The notes beneath the pieces are model-generated. The model was not told the DNA's origin and searched no databases. It worked only from the letters and a program-made list of their open reading frames with translations. The position numbers and the translations under genes were made by a program. This document shows, in pieces, positions 4,753 to 54,623 of a stretch of DNA of 64,000 nt. Origin of the DNA: Candidatus Aenigmatarchaeota archaeon (GTDB taxonomy: Archaea; Aenigmatarchaeota; Aenigmatarchaeia; CG10238-14); contig JASEGC010000001.1 in assembly GCA_030018415.1 (NCBI GenBank), positions 55,261 to 119,260 of the forward strand, in the 5' to 3' direction. Within the stretch, counting starts at the first letter, position 1, and each line of letters begins with the position of its first letter.

Positions 4753-4915
4753 ATGGTTTTTAAATGTATAAAATGTAAGAGTGTGGTTGAGGAATTAGAA
4801 GAAAGAATCAGATGTCCTTATTGCGGGCATACTTGTTTGGTTTGAAGCCAGCAAGGCCCAGAGAATTTTCGTTAAAATGAGGCCCGAAGTAATTAAGAGA
4901 GTACAAGCTAGATAG
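4753..4915 (+). CDS. rpoP: RNA polymerase subunit P (Rpo12), interrupted by a 31-nt BHB intron at 4831-4861
   Basis: Exon 1 MVFKCIKC...IRCPYCGH plus exon 2 RIFVKMRPEVIKRVQAR* gives 43 aa. It lies in the conserved rpl37ae-rpoP-pcc1-pfdB order and is missed by the ORF track. Confidence 0.9.
4831..4861 (+). other. BHB-type mRNA intron in rpoP (31 nt)
   Basis: Central helix GGGC/GCCC, 3-nt bulges AT^A and AG^A, intron stem CTTG...CAAG. Removal restores the frame. Confidence 0.88.
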
Positions 4916-4992
4916 AATTATTTCTCGTAATCCTCTCTAATTCTTCTTTTTGATTTATATGAATGGGTTTCCTATTATATTATCGATAAAAA

Positions 4993-5220
4993 ATGCAAGC
5001 AACTTTAAAGATTGAATGCAAGAACCCTGAAATTATTAAAAAAAGTTTATTACCTGATATCAAAGAAAGAAAAGATTTAAAGATTAATTTGAAAACTGAT
5101 AAAAATAATTTAATCATAAAAATCGAATCTAAAAAGATAAGTTATTTAAAAGCTGTTATCAATACATATTTATCTCTTGTCAAGACTTTGAAAGAACTGG
5201 AGGAATTACATGATCACTAA
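4993..5220 (+). CDS. pcc1: KEOPS complex subunit Pcc1
   Basis: SLLPD...IES..ISYLKAVINTYL motif; position between rpoP and pfdB. Confidence 0.8.
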   Translation: MQATLKIECKNPEIIKKSLLPDIKERKDLKINLKTDKNNLIIKIESKKISYLKAVINTYLSLVKTLKELEELHDH

Positions 5221-5545
5221 AGAAGATAGAAAATTGCTTGACCAATTTCAATCGTACCAACAACAACTTCAAGCGATACTAATACAGAAAGAAAACTTAA
5301 GATTGCAGATACTTGAGGTCGATAAAGCTGTAGAAGAATTAGAATTAAGCAAGGAGAAAGAGGCTTATAAAATCGCTGGACCAATAATGATAAAGAAAAG
5401 TTCCGTTGACTTGAAGAACGAATTAAAAGAAAAGAAAGAGAATTACAATTTGAGGATAAAAACTCTGGAAAAAGCCGAAAATAGAATAACAAACAGTTTA
5501 AGAGAGATGGAACCCAAGTTAAAAGAAATAATAAAAGAAGGTTGA
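5210..5545 (+). CDS. pfdB: Prefoldin beta subunit
   Basis: Coiled coil with AYKIAGPIMIK hairpin. Confidence 0.92.
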   Translation: MITKEDRKLLDQFQSYQQQLQAILIQKENLRLQILEVDKAVEELELSKEKEAYKIAGPIMIKKSSVDLKNELKEKKENYNLRIKTLEKAENRITNSLREMEPKLKEIIKEG

Positions 5546-5549
5546 TTCT

Positions 5550-5807
5550 ATGAAAAACATAGAACCGATCATCAAGCTGTTGACAGTTATAATCGAAGAT
5601 AGAACTGTGCCGAGAAATATAAGGGCTGCCGCAGAAGAGGCAAAAAAAGAGTTAACTGAAAAAAGTGATAATACTTGGGATATAAGGTTGAGTTCAGCCA
5701 TATCAACACTCGATGATATAATCAACGATCCAAACATGCCCATTTATACAAGAACACAGATATGGAATGTTGTGAGTATGTTAGAGGCTGTTAAAAGAGA
5801 ATTATAA
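5550..5807 (+). CDS. UPF0147 family protein
   Basis: D.TVPRNIR.AA...DPNMP.YTRT.IW motif. Confidence 0.9.
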   Translation: MKNIEPIIKLLTVIIEDRTVPRNIRAAAEEAKKELTEKSDNTWDIRLSSAISTLDDIINDPNMPIYTRTQIWNVVSMLEAVKREL

Positions 5808-5849
5808 AGTATTTAAGTTTAAGTATCAAATGGAAATTAGGTGAAAATT

Positions 5850-6203
5850 ATGGTGTTTAAATCTATTTTTAGGAGAGAAGAACCCGAAGAAGAGAAGGAA
5901 GAATTCATCGAAATAGAGCCTGAAGGAGAAGATAAGAGAAAAATTAACGTAAGGATAGAAAACTTAAATGATTACAGAGATGTGGAAGGAATTCAAAAAC
6001 TTATGAGAGAAGGAAACATCGTATTCTTGAGGATGAGAAAACTTAGAGAAAGAGATCTAGGAGAATTAAAGAGGTCTGTCGAGAGGTTGAGAAGAACTTC
6101 CATCGCGATGAATGGAGATATAATCGGCATAGATGAAGATTATCTAGTCTTAACACCATCATTTGCAAAGATATACAGAGGAGAAGCACAACAAGCAAAA
6201 TAA
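5850..6203 (+). CDS. sepF: Cell division protein SepF
   Basis: REGNIVFL...ELKRSVERLRR...GDIIGI...LVLTP; SD GGTGA before ATG 5850. Confidence 0.85.
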   Translation: MVFKSIFRREEPEEEKEEFIEIEPEGEDKRKINVRIENLNDYRDVEGIQKLMREGNIVFLRMRKLRERDLGELKRSVERLRRTSIAMNGDIIGIDEDYLVLTPSFAKIYRGEAQQAK

Positions 6204-6276
6204 GATTTCAATGAATACCATATAATTATTGAACGTGAAAGCAAAAAATTTATTTCTAAGAATAAAGATTAAGATT

Positions 6277-6615
6277 ATGAGCAAAAAAATAATCTTTTTG
6301 TTGATGTTGGTAGGAATCGTTTTCTTTTCTGGTTGTATAGGTCAAGAAAAAATAGAGGTTCCTGACAAGGACAAAGCAGTATCAGCATGCGTAGAGGAAT
6401 GTAATTCTAAATTAAGAGAAGGTGTAGATTTAACTAATGGTCCATGTTTGTTGGATCCGATAAGTGATCTACCAGACTGGGTTTGCGATGTTGCCCATGA
6501 ACCTCGACAAGATGTTGATAACGATCCAAAAAATCAGTGTAGTACATACAGAGAGGGGAGGTCACATCATTTTGTTGAAGTAGACCCTAACTGCAATCTA
6601 ATCAAGACTTGGTAA
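6277..6615 (+). CDS. Cys-rich lipoprotein, hypothetical
   Basis: Lipobox FSGC; GPCL...WVCDVAH.PR...DN...NQC...HFVEVD..C. Confidence 0.75.
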   Translation: MSKKIIFLLMLVGIVFFSGCIGQEKIEVPDKDKAVSACVEECNSKLREGVDLTNGPCLLDPISDLPDWVCDVAHEPRQDVDNDPKNQCSTYREGRSHHFVEVDPNCNLIKTW

Positions 6616-6616
6616 A

Positions 6617-7057
6617 ATGACAGGCAAAAAAATGAAGACGATTGCCTTAGTGTTTATTTTATTGATGTTTGGTTCAACTTTTACTTACGCCTTGTTGAAC
6701 TCACTAAGAGGAAGTGGTAAAGAAATACAGATACCGCAAGATAGAATATTAAATTATGAGTTGAATGAAGAACAGAGAAGATACTTGTTAACAAGAGGTT
6801 TTACACTAATCGAATACTCTTATCCCACAGGATGTTTAGAATGCATAAATGTAAAAAACAATCTGGAAAGAATTACTCAAATTTCTGATGGTCAAATATT
6901 CTTGCAAGAATTGATCAAGGAAGGAACGCCTAAACTCACCATCACCAGTTGGAATGGAGGAAAAACACTCAATGACCCCAAGAGTAAAGAAGCAGAAACA
7001 TTAATCTGTGATTTACTGATCGAAAAACCACTTTGGTGTGTGAGCAGTAAGATTTAA
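6617..7057 (+). CDS. Hypothetical secreted/membrane protein (CxxC)
   Basis: N-terminal TM helix, CLEC motif. Confidence 0.7.
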   Translation: MTGKKMKTIALVFILLMFGSTFTYALLNSLRGSGKEIQIPQDRILNYELNEEQRRYLLTRGFTLIEYSYPTGCLECINVKNNLERITQISDGQIFLQELIKEGTPKLTITSWNGGKTLNDPKSKEAETLICDLLIEKPLWCVSSKI

Positions 7058-7221
7058 TTCTTATTCAAATTTTTTATTTTTTCATCAAATTCTTTTATTT
7101 CATCCAAAAATCTTTTAACAACTCTCGGTAAATCCACATCTTGAACCTTCAAAATTTCAGTAGCTTGTTTAAGCAACTTTTCTTTTTTCTTCAATTCCTT
7201 AAATTCTTGTTCTGGGATCAT
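7054..7221 (-). CDS. 55-aa coiled-coil protein paralogous to the AlaRS C-terminal helical (dimerisation) region
   Basis: MIPEQEFKELKKKEKLLKQATEILKVQDVDLPRVVKRFLDEIKEFDEKIKNLNKN*, starting 4 nt after the alaS stop. Not in the ORF track. Confidence 0.75.
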   Translation of the reverse strand: MIPEQEFKELKKKEKLLKQATEILKVQDVDLPRVVKRFLDEIKEFDEKIKNLNKN

Positions 7222-7225
7222 TCAT

Positions 7226-9577
7226 TCACTTTTTTTTCAATTTTCTTAATTCTTTTCTTCTTGTCTTCCATGTTTCAAATAATTCTTTTACAGCTTCTGG
7301 AACTTTTTCTTCGGTGACTTTAAGTAATCTTGCAGTTTCAGTGAGAATTCTTTCTTTTTCTCTGAGATATTTTAATGCCACGTCTCCGGTAGAAAACTCG
7401 ATACGATTAACTCCATCCTGAATGCGTTTTGTTTTTAAAATAATTATGAACCCCACATCCCTAGTCGAATTTCCGTGTGTCCCTCCGCAACACTCATGGT
7501 CGATATTACCAATAGAAACAATCCTCAACCTACCCTCTGGAACGGTTCCGCCTTGATATATCCTAAACCCATATTTTTTTTCTGCTTCATTCCTCGGTAA
7601 AACTTCGATCTTTATAGGAAGGTTCTTTTTTATAATCTCGTTTGCTTTTTCTTCTATTTTTTCGATCTGTTCATCAGTTAGACTCTCAAAATGTGTTATA
7701 TCTAATCTTGCTTTGTCTGTGGTTACCTCACTCCCAGCTTGCCATACCCATTGACCTATCACTTCTCTTGCTGATGCAAGCACTATATGCACGGCATCAT
7801 GATTTTTTGTTAAACTTTCTCTTCGGTAATTATTGATATTACAATTAACAACTTGTCCCTCTTTTAATTTACCAAGAATTCTATGAACAACAACATCACC
7901 AACTTTCTGAACATCTGATACGGGAAAATCTTCGATAAAACCAACGTCTGATAATTGTCCCCCCGACGTAGCGTAAAAGTAAGTCTTATCTAATACAACC
8001 CATTTATCGTCAATCATTCTCAAAACTTTAGCCTGAAATTCCGTTTTTTTTGGATCATCGTAGACCAATAATTCAGTAGGAGGCAAACCACTGACATCTA
8101 TTGGTTCTTGGATAGTTATTTTACTTTCTCTCATATGTTTTTCAGTAACTTTCACGTAGAAATCGACTGGAATTTTTAAATCTTGAATATAATCCTGAAC
8201 TAATTCTGGTGTAATACCTTCTGAATCATAGAGTTTAATCAGCCTTTCTTCATCGATTTTCTCGCCTTTTTGAATTATAGCCTCAACAATTCTCTTTGTT
8301 CTTAATTTAGTCTCATGAAATCTTTTTTTCTCTATTTCGAGAATCTTTTGAATCTCATTCAAATTTTCAGATAGCTCGGGACAAATTAATTTAAGATGTC
8401 TAGCATGTAACTCACAAACATCTATCAAATCGATATTCCATCTGAATTCATCGATAAAACTTAAAGCTCTTCTCAAGATGACACGAAGATTATAACCACC
8501 ACCAACATTCGAAGGTAATAACCCATCTGCGATTGCAAAGGTTAATCCCATCGTATGGTCTGAGATTGCATACAAAGCTTCTAATGGTTTGATTTTTTGA
8601 TCCAACAAATCTAGAGTTACTCCTAATTGATTAGCTATCTGTTCTCTCATTTTCCTTATATTTTTCACTTCATCTAGATTTAGAGAGCCAGCAAGCTTTG
8701 AGTATCGCAAGAAGAATTCAGCATCATATTTGATTCCAGTTTGCTTTTTCAAATATCTCAAAATTGGTTCGAATGTAACATCATAAGAAGTTGGTGTTCC
8801 TTGAGTAATCCAAGCAAATCTTTCCAGACCAGCACCCATATCTATTATTTTTTCTTTCATCTCAGTTATGTTAGAATTAATTGATTTGAATTGTGTAAAT
8901 ACAGCATTACCAATTTCTAACCCTCTGACAAAATATTCAAGAGATGGACCAAGCGCTCCAGGACCAACCCAAAGATTTTCCAAGAAAACTATCTCTTCTG
9001 GTTTAATCCCAAAAGGCCCTGATAAAAGTTTGAAATCTAATTCAATACATCTATCCTTCCAGTATCCTTGATGCCCATCGAAGAGTGAATGTTGGCCTAT
9101 CATGCAAAAACAACTGTAATGTCTACCAGTAACACCAACATTAGGGATATCGTTGAAGCGAAGACAAAACTGTGGGACAATCAACGGATTTTCGGGAAAC
9201 TGAAATATTACTTCATTCTTTTCTAAACGTTGAAAATCTATTATTGAAGCGATCGTAAAGAAAAGATCAGGTCTCCATCTACAAACAATCGGATATCTTC
9301 TAATACTTGCATGATCATGCTTTCTGAAGAAATCTTCAATCACCTTCCAAGTTTGAACGTAATCGAACCTTTTACTCGTGGGAGGATTGTCCAAAAATTC
9401 GTAGAATTGACAAGGCTGATCTGGACAATGTTCTCTATCTTCATCCAGAGTCCAATAACCTCTTCCACATTTAGGACAGACTTTCCTAATAAACCCTTGA
9501 TCGATTAAAAAATCGATTTTATAATGTTTTTCCCAGTCCTTTGTGAATTCCAAACGCAATTTTTCTTTAGTGAGCAT
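7226..9577 (-). CDS. alaS: Alanine--tRNA ligase (archaeal type, lacking C-terminal DHHA1 domain)
   Basis: TIASI.DFQ, VGVTGRH, DMGAGLER, editing HxxxH and CGGTH motifs. Confidence 0.97.
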   Translation of the reverse strand: MLTKEKLRLEFTKDWEKHYKIDFLIDQGFIRKVCPKCGRGYWTLDEDREHCPDQPCQFYEFLDNPPTSKRFDYVQTWKVIEDFFRKHDHASIRRYPIVCRWRPDLFFTIASIIDFQRLEKNEVIFQFPENPLIVPQFCLRFNDIPNVGVTGRHYSCFCMIGQHSLFDGHQGYWKDRCIELDFKLLSGPFGIKPEEIVFLENLWVGPGALGPSLEYFVRGLEIGNAVFTQFKSINSNITEMKEKIIDMGAGLERFAWITQGTPTSYDVTFEPILRYLKKQTGIKYDAEFFLRYSKLAGSLNLDEVKNIRKMREQIANQLGVTLDLLDQKIKPLEALYAISDHTMGLTFAIADGLLPSNVGGGYNLRVILRRALSFIDEFRWNIDLIDVCELHARHLKLICPELSENLNEIQKILEIEKKRFHETKLRTKRIVEAIIQKGEKIDEERLIKLYDSEGITPELVQDYIQDLKIPVDFYVKVTEKHMRESKITIQEPIDVSGLPPTELLVYDDPKKTEFQAKVLRMIDDKWVVLDKTYFYATSGGQLSDVGFIEDFPVSDVQKVGDVVVHRILGKLKEGQVVNCNINNYRRESLTKNHDAVHIVLASAREVIGQWVWQAGSEVTTDKARLDITHFESLTDEQIEKIEEKANEIIKKNLPIKIEVLPRNEAEKKYGFRIYQGGTVPEGRLRIVSIGNIDHECCGGTHGNSTRDVGFIIILKTKRIQDGVNRIEFSTGDVALKYLREKERILTETARLLKVTEEKVPEAVKELFETWKTRRKELRKLKKK

Positions 9578-9753
9578 ATAATCACCAAAAGAGAATATCT
9601 AGAAACAAGATTATAAGTTTAATTTTTTCGTCAAAAAATTTTGAAAAATTCTCAGTAAACATAGTTATTGTTAAACGATATCTTTAAATATTAGTGATAT
9701 ATTAATCAAATATTACTCGAGGTGTTTAAAAAACTTCCTTCAAGAGGTGTGGT

Positions 9754-9855
9754 ATGTCAGAGTGGGACGACGAAGATTGGGACGACGAAGAAGATGAGGA
9801 AGAATGGGAGGAAAGCAGTGAGGAAGAAGCCTGGGAAGAATCTGAAGATTGGTAA
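9754..9855 (+). CDS. 33-aa highly acidic, Trp-repeat peptide
   Basis: SD GAGGTG then MSEWDDEDWDDEEDEEEWEESSEEEAWEESEDW*, followed by a T tract. Confidence 0.7.
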   Translation: MSEWDDEDWDDEEDEEEWEESSEEEAWEESEDW

Positions 9856-9939
9856 TTTTTATTTGAATTGATAAACAACGAAAGAAAGAGAACGTCAGAA
9901 AATTCAAATAGTCTCTTCCTTTTTATTTTTTCTAAAAAA

Positions 9940-10410
9940 CTAATCTACTAAAGCTTTAATCAAATCCGCTCTAGCAACTATTCCTACAAGTTTTCCTCCA
10001 TCCACAACTGGTAATCTGTTAACATCATACTTTTCCATCATTTCGGCAACTTCTACTAATGTTGTAGAAGGAGATACAACTATCACATTCTTAGTCATCA
10101 CATCTTTCACTTTCGATTTTGATGCCTTCTCGAGTTCTCTTCTAACGTCAACACGTAATTTTTGCATTTGGATGAAAGCAAGCAATAACCATGAAAGACC
10201 TGGAAACTCTATCTTGGGCAATTTCCCCAATTTTATGTCGATGAATTTGATGATATCCGAGATGCTAATTATTCCAACAATCTTTCCATCCTTCACGACA
10301 GGAGCACCTGCAATGTTCAATTTAGCCAACAATTTTGCAGCATCGAATATTGTGTCATCAGGAGAGAGAATTATCACCTTCGTGTTCATGAAATCTTTTA
10401 CTTGTTTCAT
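9940..10410 (-). CDS. CBS domain pair protein
   Basis: VKDFM...APVV...VGIIS.SDI and VKDVMT...RLPVVD.GKLVGIV.R.DL. Confidence 0.92.
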   Translation of the reverse strand: MKQVKDFMNTKVIILSPDDTIFDAAKLLAKLNIAGAPVVKDGKIVGIISISDIIKFIDIKLGKLPKIEFPGLSWLLLAFIQMQKLRVDVRRELEKASKSKVKDVMTKNVIVVSPSTTLVEVAEMMEKYDVNRLPVVDGGKLVGIVARADLIKALVD

Positions 10411-10443
10411 GATAATATTGTGATTTATACGAATAAAAAATTG

Positions 10444-10764
10444 TCACTCGACAATTGCTCCATTACTTATTTCTTTCTCAGGTTTAATCAGAACAACCTT
10501 ATTCCCTTCTACAGCTGCCAAAATCATTATTTCTGACAGTTCTCCCATTAACTTTGCTGGCTCTAAGTTAGTGACGAAAATAAATTGCTTTCCTTCTAGT
10601 TCTTCTGGTTTATAATATCCTTTTATTCCAGCGATAGCTTGCTTTATACTTCCACCTATGTCAACTTGGAATTTCAACAAGTTTTTCGAATTAGGAATTT
10701 CCAAAACTTCCTCTACAGTCCCAACTCTCATCTCAATTTTCTTGAAATCTTTAAAACTTATCAT
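10444..10764 (-). CDS. tRNA-binding domain protein (Trbp111 / MetRS C-terminal OB domain)
   Basis: DFKKIEMRVG...NLEPAKLMG..SE.MILAA; directly follows metG. Confidence 0.9.
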   Translation of the reverse strand: MISFKDFKKIEMRVGTVEEVLEIPNSKNLLKFQVDIGGSIKQAIAGIKGYYKPEELEGKQFIFVTNLEPAKLMGELSEIMILAAVEGNKVVLIKPEKEISNGAIVE

Positions 10765-10773
10765 ACCATCTCC

Positions 10774-12438
10774 TTAACTCTTCAATTTATCTTTCTGTCT
10801 TTTAATATCTTCATATTCAATCTTCTTGAACAATATTTCTGGTTTGCTAATCCTGTGACCAGGTTTTATCATAAATTTTGAAATGGAATCCCAACCATGT
10901 TCATATACGCTTTCATGAATGTTTAATTGTTTCCATATTCTCTCCGCAGAAAAAGGTAAAAAAGGTTCGAGTAATATTGCTAGAGATCTTACTGCGTTTA
11001 TGGACAGATATAAACAATTTGTAGATCTTCTCTCGTTGGCCCAAGGTTCATTTTTCTGGAAATATTTGTTACAATGATCAGAAAACTCCAAGATCTTTTT
11101 TAATGCCTTATTCAACTCAATTTTTTCCATACAATTTCCAACATCTTCTTCGATGTCCCAAATCATCCTTTCAAATGATGTATCTAAATCATTATATTCT
11201 TCTTTCGCTTCTGGGACTATACCGTTAAACTTTGACCAAATAAAACTTAGAGTCCTGTAAATGAAGTTTCCAATGTTTGCGACCAATTCATTGTTTATTC
11301 TTGAATAGAATTCATCCCAATCAAAATTAACATCTGTCTGTTCATATGGTGTGATGATAGAAAGATAATATCTAAGGTAATCTGGTGGGAATTCATTAAG
11401 AAAATCCCTTAAACTCACATACCATCCCCGACTCTTCGAGAATTTCTGACCTTGCAAAATTAAATGGCCTCTGGTTGGGATAAAATCTGGCAGTTTGAAC
11501 TCCCCAACGCCCATCCTCATCGCTGTTAAGAATAGATAATGGTGGTAAACTATGTCCTTGCCTATGAAATGATATATCTTAGAAGAATTCCAAAAAATCT
11601 TCCCATCTACTTTTTTGCTGGATAGATGTTTCAACGCTGTTGAGATGTAACACAAGTGGTTGTCAAACCATCCATACAAAACTTTATCTCTTGCTTCTTT
11701 CAGCGGAACAGGAACACCCCATGGTATATCCCTGGTGATGTCCCAATCCTTCAGACCATCTTCGATCCATTTCAGGACATAATTCTTGACCTCTGGCTGT
11801 AAATTCTTGTTTAAATTTAACCATCTACTCAGCTCATCAGAGAAATGCGATAATTTCAGGAAGTAATGTTCGCTCTCTTTCGTTATTGGCTTCGATCCGC
11901 ACATCGCGCAGTGAGCATCTAAAATCTCGCCAAGCTGAAAAATTTTACCACAATTATCGCATCCATCTGAATACTGATCTATTGATTTACAATATGGACA
12001 CGTTCCCTTAATGTATCGATCTGGAAGGTAGCTTTTACATTTCTCACAAAAAGGCTGCATTATTGTTTGTTTAAAGATGTGACCTTTTTCAAGTAGTTTT
12101 AAGAAAAAATATTGTGTTAATTTGATGTTCTCTATAGAGCTGGTCTTATAAAAGATATCAAAAGATATACCAAAATCTTGGAAATCTTTTCTGTCAACCT
12201 CATTCCAATAATCAACTATTTCTTCAGGAGTTTTACCCTCTTGCTCTGCTTTTATCAGGATCGGGGTACCAAAATCATCTGTTGCACAAACATGAATGAC
12301 ATTGTTACCCTTTAACCTATGAAATCTTGTGAAGATATCGGCAGGTAGATAAGTTGATGTAACATGACCTAGATGGATCTCACCATTCGCATAAGGGAGA
12401 GCTGAAGTTATTATTATTCTTTTCTTTAATTTATTCAC
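10774..12438 (-). CDS. metG: Methionine--tRNA ligase (catalytic part)
   Basis: LPYANGEIHLGH (HIGH) and KFSKS (KMSKS) motifs, zinc knuckles. Confidence 0.97.
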   Translation of the reverse strand: MNKLKKRIIITSALPYANGEIHLGHVTSTYLPADIFTRFHRLKGNNVIHVCATDDFGTPILIKAEQEGKTPEEIVDYWNEVDRKDFQDFGISFDIFYKTSSIENIKLTQYFFLKLLEKGHIFKQTIMQPFCEKCKSYLPDRYIKGTCPYCKSIDQYSDGCDNCGKIFQLGEILDAHCAMCGSKPITKESEHYFLKLSHFSDELSRWLNLNKNLQPEVKNYVLKWIEDGLKDWDITRDIPWGVPVPLKEARDKVLYGWFDNHLCYISTALKHLSSKKVDGKIFWNSSKIYHFIGKDIVYHHYLFLTAMRMGVGEFKLPDFIPTRGHLILQGQKFSKSRGWYVSLRDFLNEFPPDYLRYYLSIITPYEQTDVNFDWDEFYSRINNELVANIGNFIYRTLSFIWSKFNGIVPEAKEEYNDLDTSFERMIWDIEEDVGNCMEKIELNKALKKILEFSDHCNKYFQKNEPWANERRSTNCLYLSINAVRSLAILLEPFLPFSAERIWKQLNIHESVYEHGWDSISKFMIKPGHRISKPEILFKKIEYEDIKRQKDKLKS

Positions 12439-12544
12439 CTCTAGTTTCAGGTTAACACTTATCTTATATGTTCTAAAAATTTTAATTTTTTCTTAAAGTA
12501 AGTCGCGATAAAAAATAGGATTAAGGAAGATCATGTTAAATTCA

Positions 12545-31742: not shown

Positions 31743-31861
31743 TAGCCCCGGCCAGATTCGAACTGACGTCTGAAGGTATCCCCCGTAGTGACCAGAGCCT
31801 TGTAGAAACTTTCTATGCTTGACCACTACATTCCGTGAAGGTTTATCTTCTCCACGGGGCT
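31743..31861 (-). tRNA. tRNA-Gln(CTG) with three introns (10/11: 31831-31851; 29/30: 31800-31810; 37/38: 31778-31791)
   Basis: Removing the three BHB-flanked segments gives a 73-nt cloverleaf: AGCCCCG/CGGGGCT, GAAGG-CTCTGGA-CCTTC, GTCAG-TTCGAAT-CTGGC. Confidence 0.85.
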
Positions 31862-43559: not shown

Positions 43560-43641
43560 GCCCCGATAGCATAGTGGTAATGCATCCGCCTCGTAAACCC
43601 AAGAAAGCGGAAGATCGAGGGTTCAAATCCCTCTCGGGGCT
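43560..43641 (+). tRNA. tRNA-Thr(CGT) with 10-nt intron at 37/38 (43596-43605)
   Basis: GCCCCGA/TCGGGGC acceptor, TCCGC-CTCGTA^A-GCGGA anticodon arm, GAGGG-TTCAAAT-CCCTC. Confidence 0.88.
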
Positions 43642-44412: not shown

Positions 44413-44500
44413 GCGACAGTGGTCCAGCCTGGTTAAGATCCAAATGAAAAAGGATAAGCTTGCCAAGCTTGTGACCCGGGTTCAAATCCCGGCTGTCGCA
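44413..44500 (+). tRNA. tRNA-Gly(GCC) with 14-nt intron at 29/30 (44444-44457)
   Basis: GCGACAG/CTGTCGC acceptor; BHB ATCC/GGAT with bulges AA^A and AA^G; mature CAAGC-TTGCCAA-GCTTG. Confidence 0.9.
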
Positions 44501-45239: not shown

Positions 45240-45366
45240 GCAGGGGTTGCCAAGTCAGGTCAAAGGCGGTAGAATCATTGAGCACTGATAAATGATGCCG
45301 ATGCTCAAGATCATTGGGAAACCTACTCCCTTAGTGGGTTCGAGAGTTCAAATCTCTCCCCCTGCA
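45240..45366 (+). tRNA. tRNA-Leu(CAA) with two introns (30/31: 45273-45302; 37/38: 45310-45320)
   Basis: GCAGGGG/CCCCTGC acceptor, long variable arm, mature GTAGG-CTCAAGA-CCTAC; both introns BHB-flanked. Confidence 0.9.
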
Positions 45367-45550
45367 CATATTCCCTGAAGTAGCTTTCAATGACACAAAA
45401 TCCTCAAACGATGACATATTAATAAATAATTTTTTATATCAATTATTTGTATGGAACCTTGTCAACTTCTAGCGATTGGTGCAGCAGAGTTTTTAATCCT
45501 TCACACCTTATTAGGATATCATAAAGTTAAAAAGCGATTTTTTTCCGCAT

Positions 45551-46213
45551 GTGAGATACGAAATACATATTATTGTTGACTATGATGCATGTTGCAATAA
45601 AGTAGTGCCAGGAATGATGAAATACAACGTTATTGTTGATAATATTCCTTTCGACAGAAAATCAAGAACAAGAGTGTTGGATTTAGGTGTAGGAACAGGT
45701 TTAGGTGCTCTAAAAATCCTGAATGAATTTCCTAACTCACGATTGACAGACATTGATTTTCTTCAAAGATGATATCTTAAGCTAGAGAAAGGTTGAAGAT
45801 TTTTGGCAACAGAGTTAAACTGATAGAAGCCGGTTTCAATAAGATAGATTTCCCAGAAAAATACGATGTGATAGTATCAGTAGTAACAATACACAATTCC
45901 AATGAAACCGATCAAAAAAATTGATGAGAAAGATATTCAATTATTTGAACGATCGTGGTTGTTTTTTTGAACGGTGATTTTGCCAAGACCAAATCAAAAT
46001 TTTTGAACAAAAAAATTAGATAAATCCTACAAAGAATATTTGAGAGATAATCTAAGGGGAGAAGAACTTAAAATCTGGCTTCGTCATGCTTTCAAAGAAG
46101 ATAAACCCGTCGCCTTAGAAGATCAACTGTTATGGATGAAAGAAGCAGGTTTTAGAGAGATAGAATGCGTGTGGAGATATCAAAATTTGGCGGTCTACTA
46201 TGGGTTGAAATAA
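45551..46213 (+). pseudogene. Class I SAM methyltransferase pseudogene (CmoA-like)
   Basis: VLDLGVGTG, YDVIVS..TIH, EDQL.WMKEAGF pieces in different frames, with stops and small indels. Confidence 0.8.
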
Positions 46214-47041: not shown

Positions 47042-47844
47042 TTGAAACTAAAATTAGAGTCCATAAAAAGATACCAAAGTTGGACAACCCGATATTCATA
47101 GAGGGATTACCAGGAGTTGGTAACGTCGGTAGGATTGCCGCAGGCTATCTTGCAGAGCAGTTGAAAGCTGAAGAGTTCGCTGAATTATTCTCACCGCATT
47201 TTCTACCGTTCGTTCTTTTGCATCAGAGTTCAGCTGTTCATATTCTCAAGAATGAATTCTTCTACTGGAAAGCTAAAAAAAGTGACCAAAGAGATTTGAT
47301 AATCCTGATCGGAGATAGTCAGAGCATAGACCCCTTAGGACATTATGAAATTGTTGAGACTGTTCTGGATTTTTTGGAAGGTTTAGGCGTTAAAGAAATG
47401 ATAACCATAGCAGGTTTGAACGTCGGAATGTTAGAAAGAGAACCAAGAGTGATCGGAGCAGTGAGTGATCCTGAGATTATCAAGAACTATAAGAACTATG
47501 GCATAGATTTTGATGCAGGTGCTAAAGTCGGGACAATTGTAGGAGCATCTGGCTTATTCTTGGGGTTAGGGAAATATAGGGGAATGAAAGGAGTTTGTCT
47601 GCTAGGCGAGACTTCAGGATTTCCGATAATTCCGGATCCCAAGAGTGCCGAAGCTGTGTTGAAAACTTTGATGAGAATACTCAACATAAAGATTGACATG
47701 TCCAAATTACAAGATAAAGTCAAAGAGATGGAGAATTTCATGAAGAAGATTGAGAAGGTTCAGCACAGAGCGATAAGACAATTAGCGCAACAGATGAGAG
47801 AACCAAGTGAAGAAAAGGAAGAGGAACTGAAGTACATAGGATAA
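47038..47844 (+). CDS. PAC2 family proteasome assembly chaperone
   Basis: EGLPGVGNVG, GDSQ, IVGASGL.LG, CLLGET.G...DPKSA. Confidence 0.9.
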   Translation: MIETKIRVHKKIPKLDNPIFIEGLPGVGNVGRIAAGYLAEQLKAEEFAELFSPHFLPFVLLHQSSAVHILKNEFFYWKAKKSDQRDLIILIGDSQSIDPLGHYEIVETVLDFLEGLGVKEMITIAGLNVGMLEREPRVIGAVSDPEIIKNYKNYGIDFDAGAKVGTIVGASGLFLGLGKYRGMKGVCLLGETSGFPIIPDPKSAEAVLKTLMRILNIKIDMSKLQDKVKEMENFMKKIEKVQHRAIRQLAQQMREPSEEKEEELKYIG

Positions 47845-47877
47845 ACTTAAGAATCTTCGTTTGGATAATGTGAGTTT

Positions 47878-48471
47878 ATGGCAGAGGGATTGTTACTCCC
47901 AAAACAAGATTATCTATCCGCTGGAATACACATAGGAATGAAATCTAGGACAGCAGACATGAAAAAATTCATCTATAAAGTCAGAGAAGATGGTTTAGCT
48001 GTTTTAGATTTGAAGATGCTGGATGAGAGGATAGCGATCGCGGCAAAATTCTTATCGAGTATGAAAAAAATCGTTGTTGTCGGAAGGAAGTTGAATTCAC
48101 ATACTCCCGTGAAAAAATTTTCTGAGGTTGTCGGATGTGATTGTGTGATAGGAAGGTTCATGCCAGGGACTTTGACGAATCCTAGCTACAAAAAATTCAT
48201 TGAGCCTGATGTTGTTCTGTTGACAGATCCTCTATCAGATTATCAAGCGTTGAAAGAGGCCGTAGATTGCAGGGTTTCCGTTGTTGCTCTTTGCGATACT
48301 TTCAACGAGACTAGAAACATCGATTTAGTCATACCATGTAACAACAAAGGAAAGAAGTCTCTTGCTTTAATCTACTGGCTCTTGGCTAGAGAGATATTGA
48401 AGAACAAAGGAGAAAAGGAATTCAAGTATAAAGTTGAAGATTTCATGGGACCTGAGGAAGAGGAAAAATAG
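47878..48471 (+). CDS. rps2: 30S ribosomal protein S2
   Basis: YL.AG.HIG, GRFMPGTLTNP, IPCNNKG..SLALIYWLLARE. Confidence 0.97.
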   Translation: MAEGLLLPKQDYLSAGIHIGMKSRTADMKKFIYKVREDGLAVLDLKMLDERIAIAAKFLSSMKKIVVVGRKLNSHTPVKKFSEVVGCDCVIGRFMPGTLTNPSYKKFIEPDVVLLTDPLSDYQALKEAVDCRVSVVALCDTFNETRNIDLVIPCNNKGKKSLALIYWLLAREILKNKGEKEFKYKVEDFMGPEEEEK

Positions 48472-48474
48472 TTA

Positions 48475-48741
48475 TTACATTTTCCATAACTTTGTACCTT
48501 CATGTAATATTTTGGAGGCATGCTTTAAACCCAGTTTAACGAGCTTGTAGCTTGCTTCTGTAGGATGTTTTTCTAACAACCCATCCCTAGACAACCTTCT
48601 AAGATAAGATCTAACGATTGGTCTCTGGCGTTTCGTGAATTTAGAAGCGATAAAATCTTCCTGTAAATATTTATCGACTGAACCCTTAGTAAAAACCAGG
48701 AATACTAATAGAATCGTCTTTTCTAATTCTGTTAATTTCAT
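48475..48741 (-). CDS. Small winged-helix-like protein
   Basis: L.RL...GLL.KHPT...Y.L...G motif. Confidence 0.6.
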   Translation of the reverse strand: MKLTELEKTILLVFLVFTKGSVDKYLQEDFIASKFTKRQRPIVRSYLRRLSRDGLLEKHPTEASYKLVKLGLKHASKILHEGTKLWKM

Positions 48742-48874
48742 GCAACATATGTTATATTAATTTAAATAAATAATTATGTCTTAAATTAAGAAAAAAAATA
48801 AATTTATATGCGTTAAATATTTATGTAATGAATTTTGAATAGTTAATCATAAATCAATCTAAGAATGTGACATA

Positions 48875-49159
48875 ATGCCTAAAGAAAGTTACACGGAAGA
48901 TGTAGTTTATGCTTTTGTTTGCAGACATCCAGGAATGTGCACTTATTTCATATCAAAGAAACTTGGCATGACTGGTGGAAGAGTTCGGTATGCTCTCTCT
49001 AAATTGAAAGAAAAAGGTTTAGTCAAGTTCAAGTTCGAGAGAAGAAGCACAAGGATTAAAAAATTGACTTATCCTGTCGATGCTTGGTCTTTGTTGCCTA
49101 AAGTGTTGAGAGAAGAATTAAAAGGAATGATGAAGCAAAAGTCTAGCTTCAGAGAGTAA
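48875..49159 (+). CDS. wHTH DNA-binding protein
   Basis: HPG..TY.ISKKLGMTGGRVR.AL..L...GLV. Confidence 0.75.
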   Translation: MPKESYTEDVVYAFVCRHPGMCTYFISKKLGMTGGRVRYALSKLKEKGLVKFKFERRSTRIKKLTYPVDAWSLLPKVLREELKGMMKQKSSFRE

Positions 49160-49190
49160 CATTTATAAATTCTAACTCTCTAAATAATTT

Positions 49191-49451
49191 GGCTGGTAAG
49201 TTGGGAAGACGGCTTCGCTTTTCTTTAAAAGGAAAGGTGAGGAAGTTCCATCCACCATGAGGATGCTGAAAAGCGGACTGAGAAGTTCGTGAACGATATC
49301 AGAAACGATACCACCCTATCTCAATGGGATGATGCAAAGACGTCGGATAGAAGTGGATGAAACGGATTGATCACTCCGATGAGGTGCAAAGTTAAACTGC
49401 TCAGACGAATGCCGTCAAAACAGAAGATGGGCTATTCTCAGCATACCAGCC
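49191..49451 (+). ncRNA. rnpB: RNase P RNA (compact, type-M-like)
   Basis: P1 ends GGCTGGTA/TACCAGCC, CR-I GAGGAAGTTCCATCC, AGAAAC and TGAAACGG elements, CR-V AACAGAAGATGGGCTAT. Confidence 0.88.
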
Positions 49452-49486
49452 TTTTATATTTTTAACACCAATAATTAAGTGAGAAT

Positions 49487-49645
49487 ATGGCAAAGAAGGA
49501 TAGGTTCAGAATGCCTATGGGTATGGCAGGAATAACTAGGTACGGTGAAGAGACAAAAGAACAGATAAAAATTAAACCAAAGTATGTTATTGCTTTCTGC
49601 GTCGCTATAGTAATACTGGAACTCATTCTTAAGTTCTTTGGCTAA
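49487..49645 (+). CDS. secG: Preprotein translocase Sec61beta/SecG
   Basis: MP.GMAGITRY.EE....IKI.PK.VI plus TM helix. Not in the ORF track. Confidence 0.88.
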   Translation: MAKKDRFRMPMGMAGITRYGEETKEQIKIKPKYVIAFCVAIVILELILKFFG

Positions 49646-49686
49646 ATTTTAAATTCTCATGATTTATTCTATTCTTCGGTGGTTTC

Positions 49687-50526
49687 TTGAAAATCTGGAT
49701 AGGTACGGCAGGAGTCCCTGAATCTTCGAAAGACAGATCTACTTTAGGTGGACTTAAAACTGTTTCAGCTCTTAAGCTAAATTCGATGGAAATCGAGTTT
49801 GTGCGTGGGGTCAAGATGAGCAATGAAATTGCAAAAGAAGTTGGAAAGCTTGCTGATGATTTAAAAATAAGGTTATCGATTCATGCCCCTTACTTCATCA
49901 ATCTCTGTTCTTTAGAAAAGGATAAGCTTGAAGCGAGTAAGCAAAGAATTCTTGATTCGGCCGAGAGAGCTCATTTTATGCACGCTGACATAATAGTCTT
50001 TCATCCAGCTTATTATGGAAAATTATCAGAAAAAGAAGCATTCCAAAAAGTTAAAGAAGCCTGTGAAGATCTTCTGGATAGGATGAAAGATCGTGGCTTC
50101 AGCGATGTAAGATTGGGTTTGGAAACTACTGGAAAAGTTTCACAGTTCGGAACTTTAGATGAGATAATCGAAATATGTAAAGAGGTCAAAGGTTGTACTC
50201 CTGTAATCGATTTTGCACATCTCTATGCCCGAGCTGCAGGAAGAATAGATTTTTCTGAGATATTCGATAAAATTCTTGTCATTAAACTGAAGCACTTACA
50301 CACTCATTTCAGCGGGATGGAATTCAGTCCTGTGAGGATGACTGGTATGGGAAATGAAAGGAGACATCTGAATCTTAAAGATGGTGCTCCTCCAGATTAT
50401 AAACCTTTAGTAAAAGAAATTTTGAATAGAAAGGTAGACATAACACTTATCTCCGAGAGTCCGAACTTAGAAGGAGATGCTCTATTCTTGAAAGGTGTGT
50501 TTGAAAAAGAAGGATATAAGTTTTAA
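49687..50526 (+). CDS. Endonuclease IV-like TIM-barrel protein
   Basis: MEIEFVRGV, HAPYFINL, FHPAYY, ETTGK.SQFG, DFAHL.AR, ISESP.LE.DA. Confidence 0.88.
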   Translation: MKIWIGTAGVPESSKDRSTLGGLKTVSALKLNSMEIEFVRGVKMSNEIAKEVGKLADDLKIRLSIHAPYFINLCSLEKDKLEASKQRILDSAERAHFMHADIIVFHPAYYGKLSEKEAFQKVKEACEDLLDRMKDRGFSDVRLGLETTGKVSQFGTLDEIIEICKEVKGCTPVIDFAHLYARAAGRIDFSEIFDKILVIKLKHLHTHFSGMEFSPVRMTGMGNERRHLNLKDGAPPDYKPLVKEILNRKVDITLISESPNLEGDALFLKGVFEKEGYKF

Positions 50527-50557
50527 TTATTTTTAACTTGAAATTCATCTTAATACC

Positions 50558-51214
50558 ATGGAACAAAAAAATAGAAGTGTAAAATTACTTTTGAAAGAAT
50601 TTCCGAAGACTTATTCTGAAGAATTGGGAATCGATTTAATGAGTAAAAAACCAAGGGAAATATTCAAATGGTTTCTAGCTTCGATACTGTTTGGCCATAG
50701 GATTTCTGAGACGATTGCAAAGAGAACTTACAGAGAGTTTGAGAAAGAAAAACTATTATCTCCTGAAGCTATTCTTGATGCCGGTTGGGATGAATTAGTC
50801 AGAGTGTTGGATAATGGTGGGTATGTAAGGTATGATTTTTCGACTGCTTCCGCTTTACTCGATATAATGAGAAATTTAAAAGAAAAATACGGGTCTTTGG
50901 AGAAGCTATATGAAGAATCTAAAGATTCAAAGAATTTGGAATTAAGACTGCAAGAATTTAAGAGAGTAGGACCGACTACAGTAAACATCTTCTTGCGTGA
51001 GCTGAGAAGCATATGGCCTAAGGCTGATCCTAAAATTTCAAAATTCGTTAAGCTTGCTGCAAAAAACCTTAATATTGATCTAAAGATGTCTAACGAGAAA
51101 TCTGAAAAATTCGTCCATATAGAGTCTGCACTACTGAGACTTGGAAAAGATTACTGTAATAAGAAAAAATGTAATGTTTGTGTTTTTCCATGCAAGAAAG
51201 GTTTAAAAATTTAA
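50558..51214 (+). CDS. HhH-GPD superfamily protein
   Basis: FKWFLASILFG.RISE.IA, GGYVRYD, FK.VGP.T.NIFLRE. Confidence 0.8.
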   Translation: MEQKNRSVKLLLKEFPKTYSEELGIDLMSKKPREIFKWFLASILFGHRISETIAKRTYREFEKEKLLSPEAILDAGWDELVRVLDNGGYVRYDFSTASALLDIMRNLKEKYGSLEKLYEESKDSKNLELRLQEFKRVGPTTVNIFLRELRSIWPKADPKISKFVKLAAKNLNIDLKMSNEKSEKFVHIESALLRLGKDYCNKKKCNVCVFPCKKGLKI

Positions 51215-51232
51215 CATTTCAAAGAGAGTTAT

Positions 51233-51997
51233 ATGTTTAGTCCACAAAACACTGAAATACAACTCTACATAAAAGAATTACGTACATACGGTAGAAATGT
51301 AGAAGAAATAAGTTGTAAAGACAATAAATGGGTTCTCCGCATAGATCCTCCCTACAATGGAAATAACACGATAGAGATCGAATGCATGCATAACCCCAAA
51401 AAAGAACTCGAAAATGCCATAAAATACATAAGATCAATACCAGAATTTGAAAAAATTCGAGATAAAAATCTGGAGATTAAGTCAAGGATTATAAGTAAAT
51501 TCAAACAGGCTTATGTTGGACCTACAAAACCCAGATCGGGAATTTTAAGGAAGTTTTATCATGGCAAACCGATAAAAACACCTGAAGATTTTTACCAATT
51601 TTTCGAAGATCTTATAGATTTAGCTACATCTAATTTTGTTCTGCCAAAACAATTGAAACAAATCATAAACATGTATAAAAAGAAAAAACCTCACGAAAAA
51701 ATTATATTGCCTCCTGTCGGTAAGTACGGGTGGGTCAATCTTGATGATGTAAAAGTCGTTCAGCAACCATACACTATACCAAAAGAACCAACTCCAAAAT
51801 TACCTAGAGAAATATTTATCAGAAAAAAACTTATGATGGATGTTGCGATTGAAGATGCCAACCGGGAGAAATCAATAGAACAAGATGAGAAAATGATAGC
51901 AAGTGATATTTTTTACCGTGATCTAATCGCAAATTTAGAGAAAGAATTAACCTATACCGAGCAATGTAATTCTGATAGTTCAAAAGATTCAGAGTAA
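51233..51997 (+). CDS. Hypothetical orphan protein
   Basis: 254-aa ORF, no recognised motif. Confidence 0.55.
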   Translation: MFSPQNTEIQLYIKELRTYGRNVEEISCKDNKWVLRIDPPYNGNNTIEIECMHNPKKELENAIKYIRSIPEFEKIRDKNLEIKSRIISKFKQAYVGPTKPRSGILRKFYHGKPIKTPEDFYQFFEDLIDLATSNFVLPKQLKQIINMYKKKKPHEKIILPPVGKYGWVNLDDVKVVQQPYTIPKEPTPKLPREIFIRKKLMMDVAIEDANREKSIEQDEKMIASDIFYRDLIANLEKELTYTEQCNSDSSKDSE

Positions 51998-52492
51998 TTT
52001 TGCTATTTCTCTTCCAAAGTTTCTTGCTGAACTCGGGCCATCAGCTGTTATTATTTTTCCATCTTTTTCGACTGAGTTTCCAGTGTAGATTGCACCTTTT
52101 GCTCTAAGATTACCTCTTTCGCTAGACCAACACGTTGCTCTTTTCCCCTTTAATATACCAGCATTAGCTAAAGTACTCGGTGCTATACAGATTGCTCCGA
52201 TTACTTTTCCTTTTCTGTGGGCATTTTTAGCGATTTCATGAGCTTTTGAATTATTAAAGTATATCGAAGAACCAGAACCCCCGACGAATACTATTGCATC
52301 GTAATCATCCACGTTAACTTCATCTATTGTCATTTCAGGGGTCACAGTTCCGCCCAGCATTCCAGTCGCTGTATTTGTAGCAGTCGAGGCAATGGTAACA
52401 TCGTTTCCAGAAGATTCCAACTCTTCTTTTGTGTTAAATAATTCCTCGTCCCTGAAATTCTTTGGTGCGATTATCATCAATACTTTTCCCAT
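51989..52492 (-). CDS. DJ-1/PfpI family protein
   Basis: FRDEE, FVGG.G, GAICIAP..LA.AG.L.GK.AT. Confidence 0.92.
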   Translation of the reverse strand: MGKVLMIIAPKNFRDEELFNTKEELESSGNDVTIASTATNTATGMLGGTVTPEMTIDEVNVDDYDAIVFVGGSGSSIYFNNSKAHEIAKNAHRKGKVIGAICIAPSTLANAGILKGKRATCWSSERGNLRAKGAIYTGNSVEKDGKIITADGPSSARNFGREIAKLL

Positions 52493-52536
52493 AAATTCAC
52501 CTCCTATCTTTAATTTTAAACTACAAATAAATAATT

Positions 52537-52956
52537 ATGAAAAAGTTTGAGTTTGTCGATATTACTACAGCAGATGTTGCTTTTAAAGCTTATGGCAAAA
52601 ACTTGAACGAACTTTTTGCCAATTCTGCTCTAGCAATGTTTGAAGTTATGATAAACACAAAGCAAGTAAAACCAAGGATTATAAGGGGACTGAAAGTAAA
52701 AGGAAATGATTTACAATCTTTAATGTTCAGTTGGCTCAATGAGCTATTGGTTTTTGTTGATTCAGAGAATCTGGCATTTTCTAGTTTTAAAACAGAAGTT
52801 GATGAGAAAAATTTTACTTTGAACGCAGTTTGTAAAGGAGAGAAGATCGATCCTAAAAAACATGAGATAAGAACTGCCGTGAAAGCATGCACATACCATC
52901 AAATGAAAATTGAGAAAAATAAAATTTGGAAAATTCAGGTTATTTTAGATATTTAA
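52537..52956 (+). CDS. Archease (RtcB cofactor)
   Basis: TADV.F.AYG...ELF.N.A, WLNEL, VKACTYH, C-terminal DI. Confidence 0.92.
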   Translation: MKKFEFVDITTADVAFKAYGKNLNELFANSALAMFEVMINTKQVKPRIIRGLKVKGNDLQSLMFSWLNELLVFVDSENLAFSSFKTEVDEKNFTLNAVCKGEKIDPKKHEIRTAVKACTYHQMKIEKNKIWKIQVILDI

Positions 52957-52993
52957 GCAAGATTTCTAAAAAAATAATATTTTAGTGAAAAAA

Positions 52994-53110
52994 ATGAAAA
53001 AATGCCCAAACTGTGGAGCAAGTTTAAAGTTTATTCTCGATGAATGGGTTTGTTTAGAATGCGAGTACCATAGTGAAAAACCGAAAGAAGTGGAAAAATC
53101 TTTCAGATGA
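52994..53110 (+). CDS. 38-aa zinc-ribbon protein
   Basis: MKKCPNCGASLKFILDEWVCLECEYHSEKPKEVEKSFR*. Confidence 0.6.
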   Translation: MKKCPNCGASLKFILDEWVCLECEYHSEKPKEVEKSFR

Positions 53111-53135
53111 TGCTTAAGTTGAGTATCAAAGATTA

Positions 53136-54623
53136 TTAACCCTTTACAACTCCTAAAGGAACTAATCTAGCCACGCGCTTACTTATTCCAGCTTCTTCGG
53201 TTATCCTTGCTACTTCATCTATGTCCTTGTAAGCCTCTGGTGCTTCTTCTGCCATAACTCTCCAACTAGCAGCCCTTGATAAAATTCCTTTCTGGACAAG
53301 CCTTCTTGCTACTTCTTCCCCCCTCAAACCCCTTAACATTTTAGCTCTTGAGGCAACTCTTCCTGCCCCATGTGCGGTTGAATAGAAAGTTTCTTTTGCT
53401 GTATCTGATGCAACTAAAACGTAACTTGCACTACCCATACTCCCTGGAATAATCACTGGCTGCGCTGTATTTCTATAATCCTTTGGTATTTCTGGATGTC
53501 CTGCAGGAAAGGCTCTAGTGGCCCCTTTTCTATGAACATAAACCTTGACTTTTTTCCCATCGATCTCATGTTCTTCAATTTTTCCAATGTTGTGAGCGAC
53601 GTCATAAACAACTTCAAGACCCATGTCCTCCATTTTCATCCCTAAAACTTTTACAAAACTTTCTCTTACCCAATGATTTATGATTTGTCTGTTGGTCCAA
53701 GCATAGTTAGCTGCGCAAGCCATCGCAGAAAAATAATCTTCACACTCTTTTGTGCCAGAGGAGGCATAAACTAGTTCTCTATCTGGGAGTTTCCTTATTT
53801 CGTCTCTAAACCTTGATTCCAAAATTCTTAGGTAATCTGTACAAACTTGATGTCCAAAACCTCTTGAGCCTGTATGGATCATAACTGCTATTTGTCCTAT
53901 CTTTTCAATACCGAAAACTTTGGCAACTTCTGGGAGGAATATTTTATCTACAAGTTGAACCTCAAGAAAATGATTACCTGCCCCTAAAGTTCCAAGCTGA
54001 GGAGCACCTCTTTTCTTAGCTTCATTAGAAACTTTTTGTGGGTTTGCACCTTTCATGCAACCATTTTCTTCCAGATGATCTAAATCTTTTTCAGTGCCGT
54101 AACCTTTCTCAACAGCCCATCTAGCCCCATTTACTAAAACTTCATCCAACTCAGAAAAACTTAACCTTATTTTGCCTATTTCTCCCACTCCAGAAGGTAC
54201 ATTCCTAAAGATTGATTCTAACAATTCTCTTAATTTTGGTCTTATTTGATCTACAGTTAAATTCGTTCTAAGTAAGCGGACACCACAGTTGATGTCAATT
54301 TCGGGGATTTATACAGTCCAATCCGATGCCACCAGGTGAGAGTCCGCCACTGTTGTAATCCAGCGCTGCAACCCCTCCGATAGGAAATCCTTGGTCGCTT
54401 TCTAGCTGTAACCGAAATGCATATCGGGGAGTGCAATGCTATGTTTGTAGATGCCAGGCAGAAAAGCTACGTTTGCAGCTTGTTCAATTGCTTCTTCTTC
54501 AACTTCTCTAAGAAGTCTATCAGATAGGAATAATAAGACTGGTACTTTCATTCCTGGTTTTGCTTCTTTAGGCAGTTCCCACCTACAATTCGCAATCTTC
54601 TTTAATCTTTCCTTTAAGTTCAT
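53136..54623 (-). CDS. rtcB: tRNA-splicing ligase RtcB, interrupted by two BHB introns (54391-54407 and 54299-54320); 482 aa after splicing
   Basis: Spliced frame reads PDMHFGY^GFPIGGVAA...SPGGIG^FDINCGVR and continues to GNHF, HTGSRG, HRKGAT, HGAGR, EEAP.AYK, VVKG. Confidence 0.93.
54299..54320 (-). other. BHB-type mRNA intron 2 in rtcB (22 nt)
   Basis: Central helix TCGG/CCGA, bulges AT^T and AA^T, intron stem GGA/TCC, exon stem GGTGGCA/TGACATC. Confidence 0.9.
54391..54407 (-). other. BHB-type mRNA intron 1 in rtcB (17 nt)
   Basis: Central helix GGTT/GACC, bulges AC^A and AA^G, intron stem GCT/AGC; contains an in-frame TAG. Confidence 0.88.

Follow-up and report, generated by a model that had tools for sequence, protein, structure and literature searches.

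A 64,000-nucleotide (nt) stretch of a Candidatus Aenigmatarchaeota genome (G000:C8:55261-119260, hereafter the window) contains short insertions that break the reading frames of two protein genes, rpoP and rtcB, and interrupt four of its five tRNA genes. We conclude that these insertions, together with eight more in five protein genes elsewhere in the genome, are very probably true archaeal bulge-helix-bulge (BHB) introns, which would thus lie in protein-coding genes as well as in tRNA genes. The genome under study (G000) is a draft assembly of 1.19 Mb in 16 contigs, 89% complete and with about 36% G+C. We compared it with genomes of the same order, 41 for the RtcB survey and 35 of these for EF-2, among which G001 and G002 belong to the same genus and G010 (960,002 bases) to the same family. 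In the proposed mechanism, four bases of the exon shortly before the 5' junction of the pre-mRNA would form a 4-bp helix with four located close to the intron's 3' end, two 3-nt bulges would flank this helix, the splicing endonuclease EndA would cut in both, and the ligase RtcB together with archease would join the exons and restore the reading frame.

Putative introns in rpoP and rtcB

The interrupted protein genes of the window, and the archease gene next to one of them, are as follows.

4753-4830, + strand: rpoP exon 1, 26 codons, with the second zinc-ribbon CxxC motif at its end (three-frame translation)
4831-4861, + strand: putative BHB intron of rpoP, 31 nt
4862-4915, + strand: rpoP exon 2, 17 codons and stop, frame +2 relative to exon 1
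54623-53136, - strand: rtcB, whole gene, broken twice (17 nt and 22 nt)
54408-54623, - strand: rtcB exon 1, 72 codons, RtcB profile positions 1-25 at residues 48-72 (Pfam)
54407-54391, - strand: putative BHB intron 1 of rtcB, 17 nt, after the metal-binding His motif and before the GFPIGG motif
54321-54390, - strand: rtcB exon 2, 23 codons and 1 nt
54320-54299, - strand: putative BHB intron 2 of rtcB, 22 nt, within the GxGFDINCG motif
53136-54298, - strand: rtcB exon 3, 2 nt, 386 codons and stop, RtcB profile positions 48-426 (E 1.7e-148)
52537-52956, + strand: archease (RtcB activator), convergent with the adjoining rtcB, Pfam Archease 1-136/136 (E 3.4e-45)

The zinc-ribbon Pfam match of rpoP exon 1 is weak. 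The rpoP insertion pairs GGGC with GCCC at all four positions of the central helix, with an inner helix of 6 bp and an outer helix of 1 bp, and its central helix is recovered by an unconstrained minimum free energy (MFE) fold. The RpoP Pfam model finds an intact gene in G001, G002 and most relatives and misses the split gene of G000, so a split core gene can appear absent. Both rtcB insertions likewise have complete central helices (GGTT/GACC in the first, TCGG/CCGA in the second), each with an inner helix of 3 bp and an outer helix of 2 bp. The second rtcB exon spans the gap in the Pfam profile between exons 1 and 3; it is too short to score alone and matches the RtcB of relatives in a spliced alignment. 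Both rtcB and EF-2 are present in a single copy in G000. Since the gene of the ligase is itself interrupted twice, the making of new ligase would depend on ligase that already exists.

tRNA introns of the window

Seven introns of 10-30 nt lie in four of the five tRNAs, at position 10/11 once, 29/30 twice, 30/31 once and 37/38 three times; we placed them by manual parsing and then by script.

543-620, + strand: tRNA-Thr(GGT), the sole tRNA of the window without an intron (ARAGORN, Rfam)
43560-43641, + strand: tRNA-Thr(CGT), intron 43596-43605 (10 nt, 37/38), central helix 3/4, outer helix of 5 bp formed by the anticodon stem
44413-44500, + strand: tRNA-Gly(GCC), intron 44444-44457 (14 nt, 29/30), central helix ATCC/GGAT 4/4, outer helix 4 bp
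45240-45366, + strand: tRNA-Leu(CAA), introns 45273-45302 (30 nt, 30/31; inner helix 6 bp) and 45310-45320 (11 nt, 37/38), central helix 4/4 in both
31861-31743, - strand: tRNA-Gln(CUG), introns 31851-31831 (21 nt, 10/11), 31810-31800 (11 nt, 29/30) and 31791-31778 (14 nt, 37/38), central helices 4/4, 3/4 and 4/4 in this order

The central 4-bp helix is thus complete in five of the seven introns and lacks one pair in two. After removal of the introns in silico, ARAGORN called all four tRNAs as intronless genes (Thr-CGT, Gly-GCC, Leu-CAA and Gln-CTG) with the expected anticodons. Before removal, default ARAGORN detected one of the five tRNAs and Rfam at the gathering score two, so that default finders missed three to four of them; ARAGORN with introns allowed detected four with wrong intron placement, and a search for the T-arm motif recovered the remaining one, near 31,800 on the minus strand. 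Over the whole genome, ARAGORN assigns an intron to 25 of the 34 tRNAs detected. The first nine bases of tRNA-Gln are also repeated directly just upstream of its 5' end (31872-31862, - strand).

The tRNA and mRNA introns follow one BHB geometry and have a common A-rich habit: A predominates both as the first base of the bulge and as the first base of the intron, and most introns end in AA or AT. An earlier sequence-only reading of the window had proposed the three mRNA introns, the seven tRNA introns at these positions, the adjoining of archease and rtcB and a single system for both kinds of intron; our analysis agrees with it on the first three points and, as to the last, supports a common geometry.

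More putative introns in protein genes of the genome

The same reading had predicted further frame breaks spanned by BHB motifs outside the window. We aligned the 769 open reading frames (ORFs) of G010 that have a homologue in G000, protein to DNA, against G000, allowing jumps at a penalty of 30. A penalty of 12 had given 2340 jumps, with a BHB score of at least 8 in 299 real versus 233 control cases, and was dropped as too permissive in favour of 30. At the latter penalty there were 528 jumps, 39 of them frame-breaking or stop-carrying, including 28 of at least 9 nt, and those with strongly conserved flanks led to eight more putative BHB introns, as the prediction had it, in five genes.

aIF2-gamma: one putative intron, 30 nt, in the P-loop
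RNase HII (rnhB): one putative intron, 40 nt
Proteasome alpha (psmA): one putative intron, 30 nt
UppS: one putative intron, 20 nt
EF-2: four putative introns, 32, 20, 14 and 15 nt

The total for G000 comes to 11 introns of 14-40 nt in seven single-copy essential genes (rpoP, rtcB with two, EF-2 with four, aIF2-gamma, RNase HII, proteasome alpha and UppS), all inside the first 115 codons or so and seated in catalytic or nucleotide-binding motifs. As the scan depends on conserved flanks, 11 is a lower bound and the concentration in conserved motifs is partly a detection bias. The Pfam matches of the downstream exons all start in mid-domain, at profile position 12/188 of GTP_EFTU, 9/199 of RNase_HII, 7/23 of Proteasome_A_N, 6/219 of Prenyltransf, 87/188 of GTP_EFTU in EF-2 and 48/426 of RtcB. 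In a cbf5 homologue the spliced-alignment scan flagged no break, no search having been aimed at this gene. The suggestion that spliced genes can look missing is supported by the RpoP model, but the claim that there are many of them is to be reduced to a modest 11 introns in seven genes among the 769 queries.

Anatomy, folding and controls

The canonical BHB register has, on each strand, four paired bases and then a 3-nt bulge that is cut after its second base. At this register all 11 mRNA introns have a complete 4/4 central helix, and the predicted cuts join the frames exactly and without a stop, rebuilding in silico the motifs of the intact homologues. They differ from inteins, which are translated in frame with the host protein: eight of the lengths (31, 17, 22, 40, 20, 32, 20 and 14 nt) cannot be divided by three, and the remaining introns (30, 30 and 15 nt) contain in-frame stops. 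The unconstrained MFE fold of the intron with 14 nt on each side gives the central helix in eight of the 11 cases. Seven real cases, versus none with a parallel-pairing control geometry, passed a strict filter that required a junction peptide score of at least 45 and A-first bulges, and none of 26 in-frame, stop-free insertions carried a BHB. By our own estimate, which is not the output of a tool, seven consecutive pairs at fixed coordinates would arise by chance at about 0.375^7, or about 1e-3.

Shared, shifted and absent introns among relatives

A search with the RtcB model (PF01139) found an uninterrupted 1-426 match in 27 of the 41 genomes, including G002, and profile positions 1-91 intact in G001. 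BHB introns occupy both G000 sites in the rtcB gene of G028 (26 nt at site 1 and 18 nt at site 2), with paired changes between the two genomes that preserve the helices, such as GGTT/GACC versus GGCT/GGCC. In G014 a 32-nt BHB intron lies two codons upstream of the G000 site, and G037 has one intron at the shifted place of G014 and another, of 31 nt, two codons downstream of site 2. Micro-introns in EF-2 were found in five of the 35 genomes, namely, G000 (four), G029 (three), G039 (two), G037 (one) and G011 (one, an insertion of 26 nt with a weak BHB, score 7). The P-loop site is common to G000 and G037, where about two-thirds of the intron bases are identical and a compensatory change is seen, and two other sites are common to G000 and G029.

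The sequence-only reading had also likened the seats of the mRNA introns in conserved motifs to those of mobile introns. The patchy distribution fits mobility, but a test for co-conversion of the exons of EF-2 was negative: G001 and G002, which have no such introns, are the nearest genomes to G000 both in the N-terminal part (77-78%) and in the remainder (80-81%), and nothing points to an import of exon flanks at this gene. In relatives, intein-sized in-frame insertions coincide with the micro-intron sites or lie a few codons away at most, affecting the RtcB motifs in G007, G017, G028 and G040 and the EF-2 P-loop in G006, G024, G030, G032, G036 and G040.

Two side observations concern these genomes. 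The N-terminal G domain of EF-2 has two P-loop types in the order, the usual AH-x-DHGKT and SSHVHHGKT, irrespective of family labels; the latter is the type of four out of the five genomes in which EF-2 micro-introns were found, the exception being G011 with its weak BHB. Compared with G000, the rRNA region of G010 (C3, near 7819) has 124 nt inserted; with 11 bp in the inner helix and a complete central helix (4/4), this insertion resembles a BHB intron of the large rRNA.

The splicing endonuclease

An EndA of 180 aa with both Pfam domains, N- and C-terminal, is encoded outside the window.

G000:C8:371813-372352: EndA, 180 aa

No second EndA match was found at E<=10 in the 89%-complete genome. 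The protein aligns over its full length to the subunit of the Methanocaldococcus jannaschii homotetramer (1a79, E 1.5e-33). Compared with that subunit, six extra, Lys-rich residues lie between its catalytic Tyr and its catalytic His, and this insertion aligns without gaps to the alpha (catalytic) subunit of N. equitans (3iey_A). According to the accessible text of Kaneta 2018 (PMC5829648), such an insertion is the L3 loop, found in alpha4-type EndAs of several DPANN lineages and shared with N. equitans and ARMAN-2, and L3-bearing alpha4-type EndAs go with increased disruption of tRNA genes in DPANN. The G000 enzyme thus appears to be an alpha-type EndA with the DPANN L3 loop, the loop being so called on the basis of that study; this answers the question of EndA architecture posed by the sequence-only reading with the kind of enzyme that PMC5829648 ties to tRNA disruption.

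Most genomes of the order have the 180-aa EndA, and some, including G028, have a three-unit form of about 400 aa instead or in addition. Open frames about 246-412 aa long, with two or three stretches resembling EndA, were noted in G024, G026, G028, G030, G031, G034, G036, G038 and G040; they recall the epsilon2 type of ARMAN-2, and some of these genomes also have the 180-aa form.

Introns, lesions, bypassing or regulation

That EndA, RtcB and archease are all encoded in G000 counts in favour of true BHB introns, and so does the occurrence of introns with compensatory helix changes in independent genomes. The introns would be removed constitutively by cleavage and ligation at the RNA level, and would largely be selfish or neutral passengers. 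Several results weigh against such introns. Only three of the 11 (rtcB-1, rtcB-2 and EF2-2) have both flanking helices of at least 2 bp, the strict hBHBh' form, and the other eight are relaxed, six with the inner helix only (HBh') and two with the outer helix only (hBH); these relaxed forms are described in the accessible text of PMC5829648 as known substrates of broad-specificity EndAs, but for the L3-bearing alpha-type EndA that source offers a correlation. In three of the 11, the unconstrained MFE prefers another fold. A whole-genome scan for BHB motifs and ORFs that used no homology gave 3400 candidates versus 3374-3567 in five control geometries; showing no excess over the controls, it is uninformative at such a density of introns. 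A search of sequencing runs found no RNA run holding the sequence and two DNA runs, with shares of 0.09 and 0.07. The same-genus G001 and G002 have no introns at rtcB (G001 over positions 1-91), EF-2 or rpoP, and a reciprocal scan of G010 with 758 G000 ORFs gave 29 frame-breaking jumps, eight of them with good flanks, and no convincing protein-gene intron, so rapid gain or loss must be accepted.

If the insertions were instead lesions, either pseudogenes or errors of sequencing or assembly in a metagenome-assembled genome, seven single-copy essential genes would be dead, and it would be hard to see why all the insertions have a BHB placed precisely at the register that restores the frame, why none of the 26 in-frame insertions has the motif, and why homologous insertions with compensatory changes recur in independently assembled genomes. 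We consider this extremely improbable, even though the draft is in 16 contigs and 89% complete, plain frame breaks of 1-2 nt do occur in it, and a methyltransferase-like region of the window, at about 45,450-46,210, appears decayed. Programmed translational bypassing, in which the ribosome skips the gap as in phage T4 gene 60 and the yeast mitochondrial byp elements, would agree with the gap size of 14-40 nt, with a stop or frame break at or after the gap and with a hairpin within it. However, none of the three gaps of the window, inspected by eye, has a landing codon matching the take-off codon, and the structure uses exon bases in the BHB register as it does in tRNA introns, which cannot be bypassed; we give bypassing hardly any credence.

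Two further proposals take the introns as real. One, the global control proposed in the sequence-only reading, refines the view of BHB introns without excluding it: the levels of EndA, RtcB and archease would set the extent of splicing and so gate the synthesis of core products, namely, translation factors, RNA polymerase, the proteasome and the ligase. The targets are indeed core expression genes, rtcB is self-dependent, each of the 11 introns is close to the 5' end of its gene, and in Haloferax the removal of a BHB intron from the 5' untranslated region (UTR) matters for the expression of HVO_1309, according to the accessible text of PMC7714728. We nevertheless think such a regulated layer unlikely, as close relatives do without these introns, which speaks against a conserved regulatory role, the bias towards conserved motifs may partly be one of detection in a scan that needs conserved flanks, and the proposal is pure conjecture. 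The other proposal, which we put forward tentatively as a possibility on the weaker side, is that the BHB micro-introns are mobile, ORF-less selfish elements, or 'RNA-level inteins', that spread between lineages of the order into invariant motifs of essential genes, perhaps through reverse EndA and RtcB reactions followed by recombination, and that persist because only precise deletion is viable; by invading rtcB they would have made the ligase supply of the host dependent on itself. If it were true, many 'missing' marker genes of small archaeal genomes would be annotation artefacts.

Comparison with known systems

The nearest precedent for the putative BHB introns of G000 is the cbf5 intron of Crenarchaeota (Watanabe 2002; Yokobori 2009, PMC2738675), which, as far as the accessible text goes, is likewise a BHB in coding sequence, presumably removed by EndA cleavage and religation, with patchy gain and loss among relatives. 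However, that case concerns one gene in thermophilic Crenarchaeota with an (alpha-beta)2 EndA, whereas G000 has 11 introns in seven other genes and an alpha-type EndA with L3; unlike cbf5, it has up to four introns per gene, introns as short as 14 nt and an interruption of the ligase gene itself. Archaeal tRNA introns cut by broad-specificity EndAs (Thermoproteales, ARMAN and DPANN) share with those of G000 the classes hBHBh', HBh' and hBH, the non-canonical positions 10/11, 29/30 and 30/31, and an L3-bearing alpha-type EndA, as described in the accessible parts of PMC5829648 and PMC12397907. In these parts, both papers concern tRNA genes and mention no mRNA targets in DPANN, whereas G000 has predicted mRNA introns too.

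Inteins resemble the micro-introns in occupying invariant motifs of essential genes, but they keep the reading frame, run to hundreds of codons and are excised from the protein, whereas the G000 elements are 14-40 nt long, frame-breaking or stop-carrying, and have an RNA structure. The intron of the eukaryotic XBP1/HAC1 mRNA measures 26 nt. Its splicing by IRE1 and RtcB, in the accessible text of PMC8718801 and PMC13586215, resembles the process proposed here in having a very short intron in coding sequence, a protein endonuclease, joining by RtcB and a change of frame; it differs in the endonuclease (IRE1), in the stem-loop motif and in having one regulated target as opposed to the many constitutive ones of G000.

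In the accessible text of PMC7714728, cbf5 is the sole additional BHB intron reported beside the Haloferax 5'UTR case; for archaeal mRNA BHB introns, the available text of PMC12397907 cites the cbf5 papers alone, and that of a 2026 review (PMC13149111) holds nothing. The full-text literature, whose coverage leaves out most subscription journals, yielded no BHB introns in archaeal coding sequences beyond cbf5, and we found no prior description of BHB micro-introns in multiple archaeal mRNAs such as those predicted here. If they are spliced as predicted, endonuclease-type splicing of archaeal mRNA is not a curiosity of one gene but reaches a set of core genes. Whether mRNA splicing by protein enzymes predates the spliceosome, and how coupled transcription and translation copes with it, would become testable questions, and the self-dependence of rtcB would amount to a feedback circuit of a simple, natural kind. 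Gene-calling programs break up or miss such genes, and the split genes and tRNAs that are missed bias estimates of completeness and metabolic reconstructions of small archaeal genomes.

Other features of the window and genome

Further features of the window were identified by an RNA search and by Pfam.

49196-49446: archaeal RNase P RNA (RNA search)
51989-52492, - strand: DJ-1/PfpI gene, adjoining archease (Pfam)
54776-55849, + strand: LigD_Prim-Pol primase-polymerase gene, divergent from rtcB (Pfam)

The methyltransferase-like region, at 45,450-46,210 on the + strand, has a GxGxG motif that by eye is of the S-adenosylmethionine-dependent type, together with several stops and frame changes; no ORF of at least 80 aa was called in it, and it may be a decayed gene. 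Elsewhere in the genome, plain 1-2-nt frame breaks with no room for an intron lie in conserved genes at G000:C8:122483, 375701 and 384831 and at C10:76232, and could be sequencing errors, recoding or decay. The PolB gene (G000:C8:448494-450126 and 450564-450894; locus L097) has a LAGLIDADG intein ahead of its SLYP motif and, after its DTDS motif, a frame-changing insertion of 331 nt with an ORF of its own of about 105 codons and a hydrophobic look; no convincing BHB was found at this insertion, which may mark a split polB or a larger intron. Two in-frame insertions relative to G010 homologues, of 1077 and 1371 nt (G000:C8:490007-492826 and C8:178322-175566), have sizes that suggest inteins.

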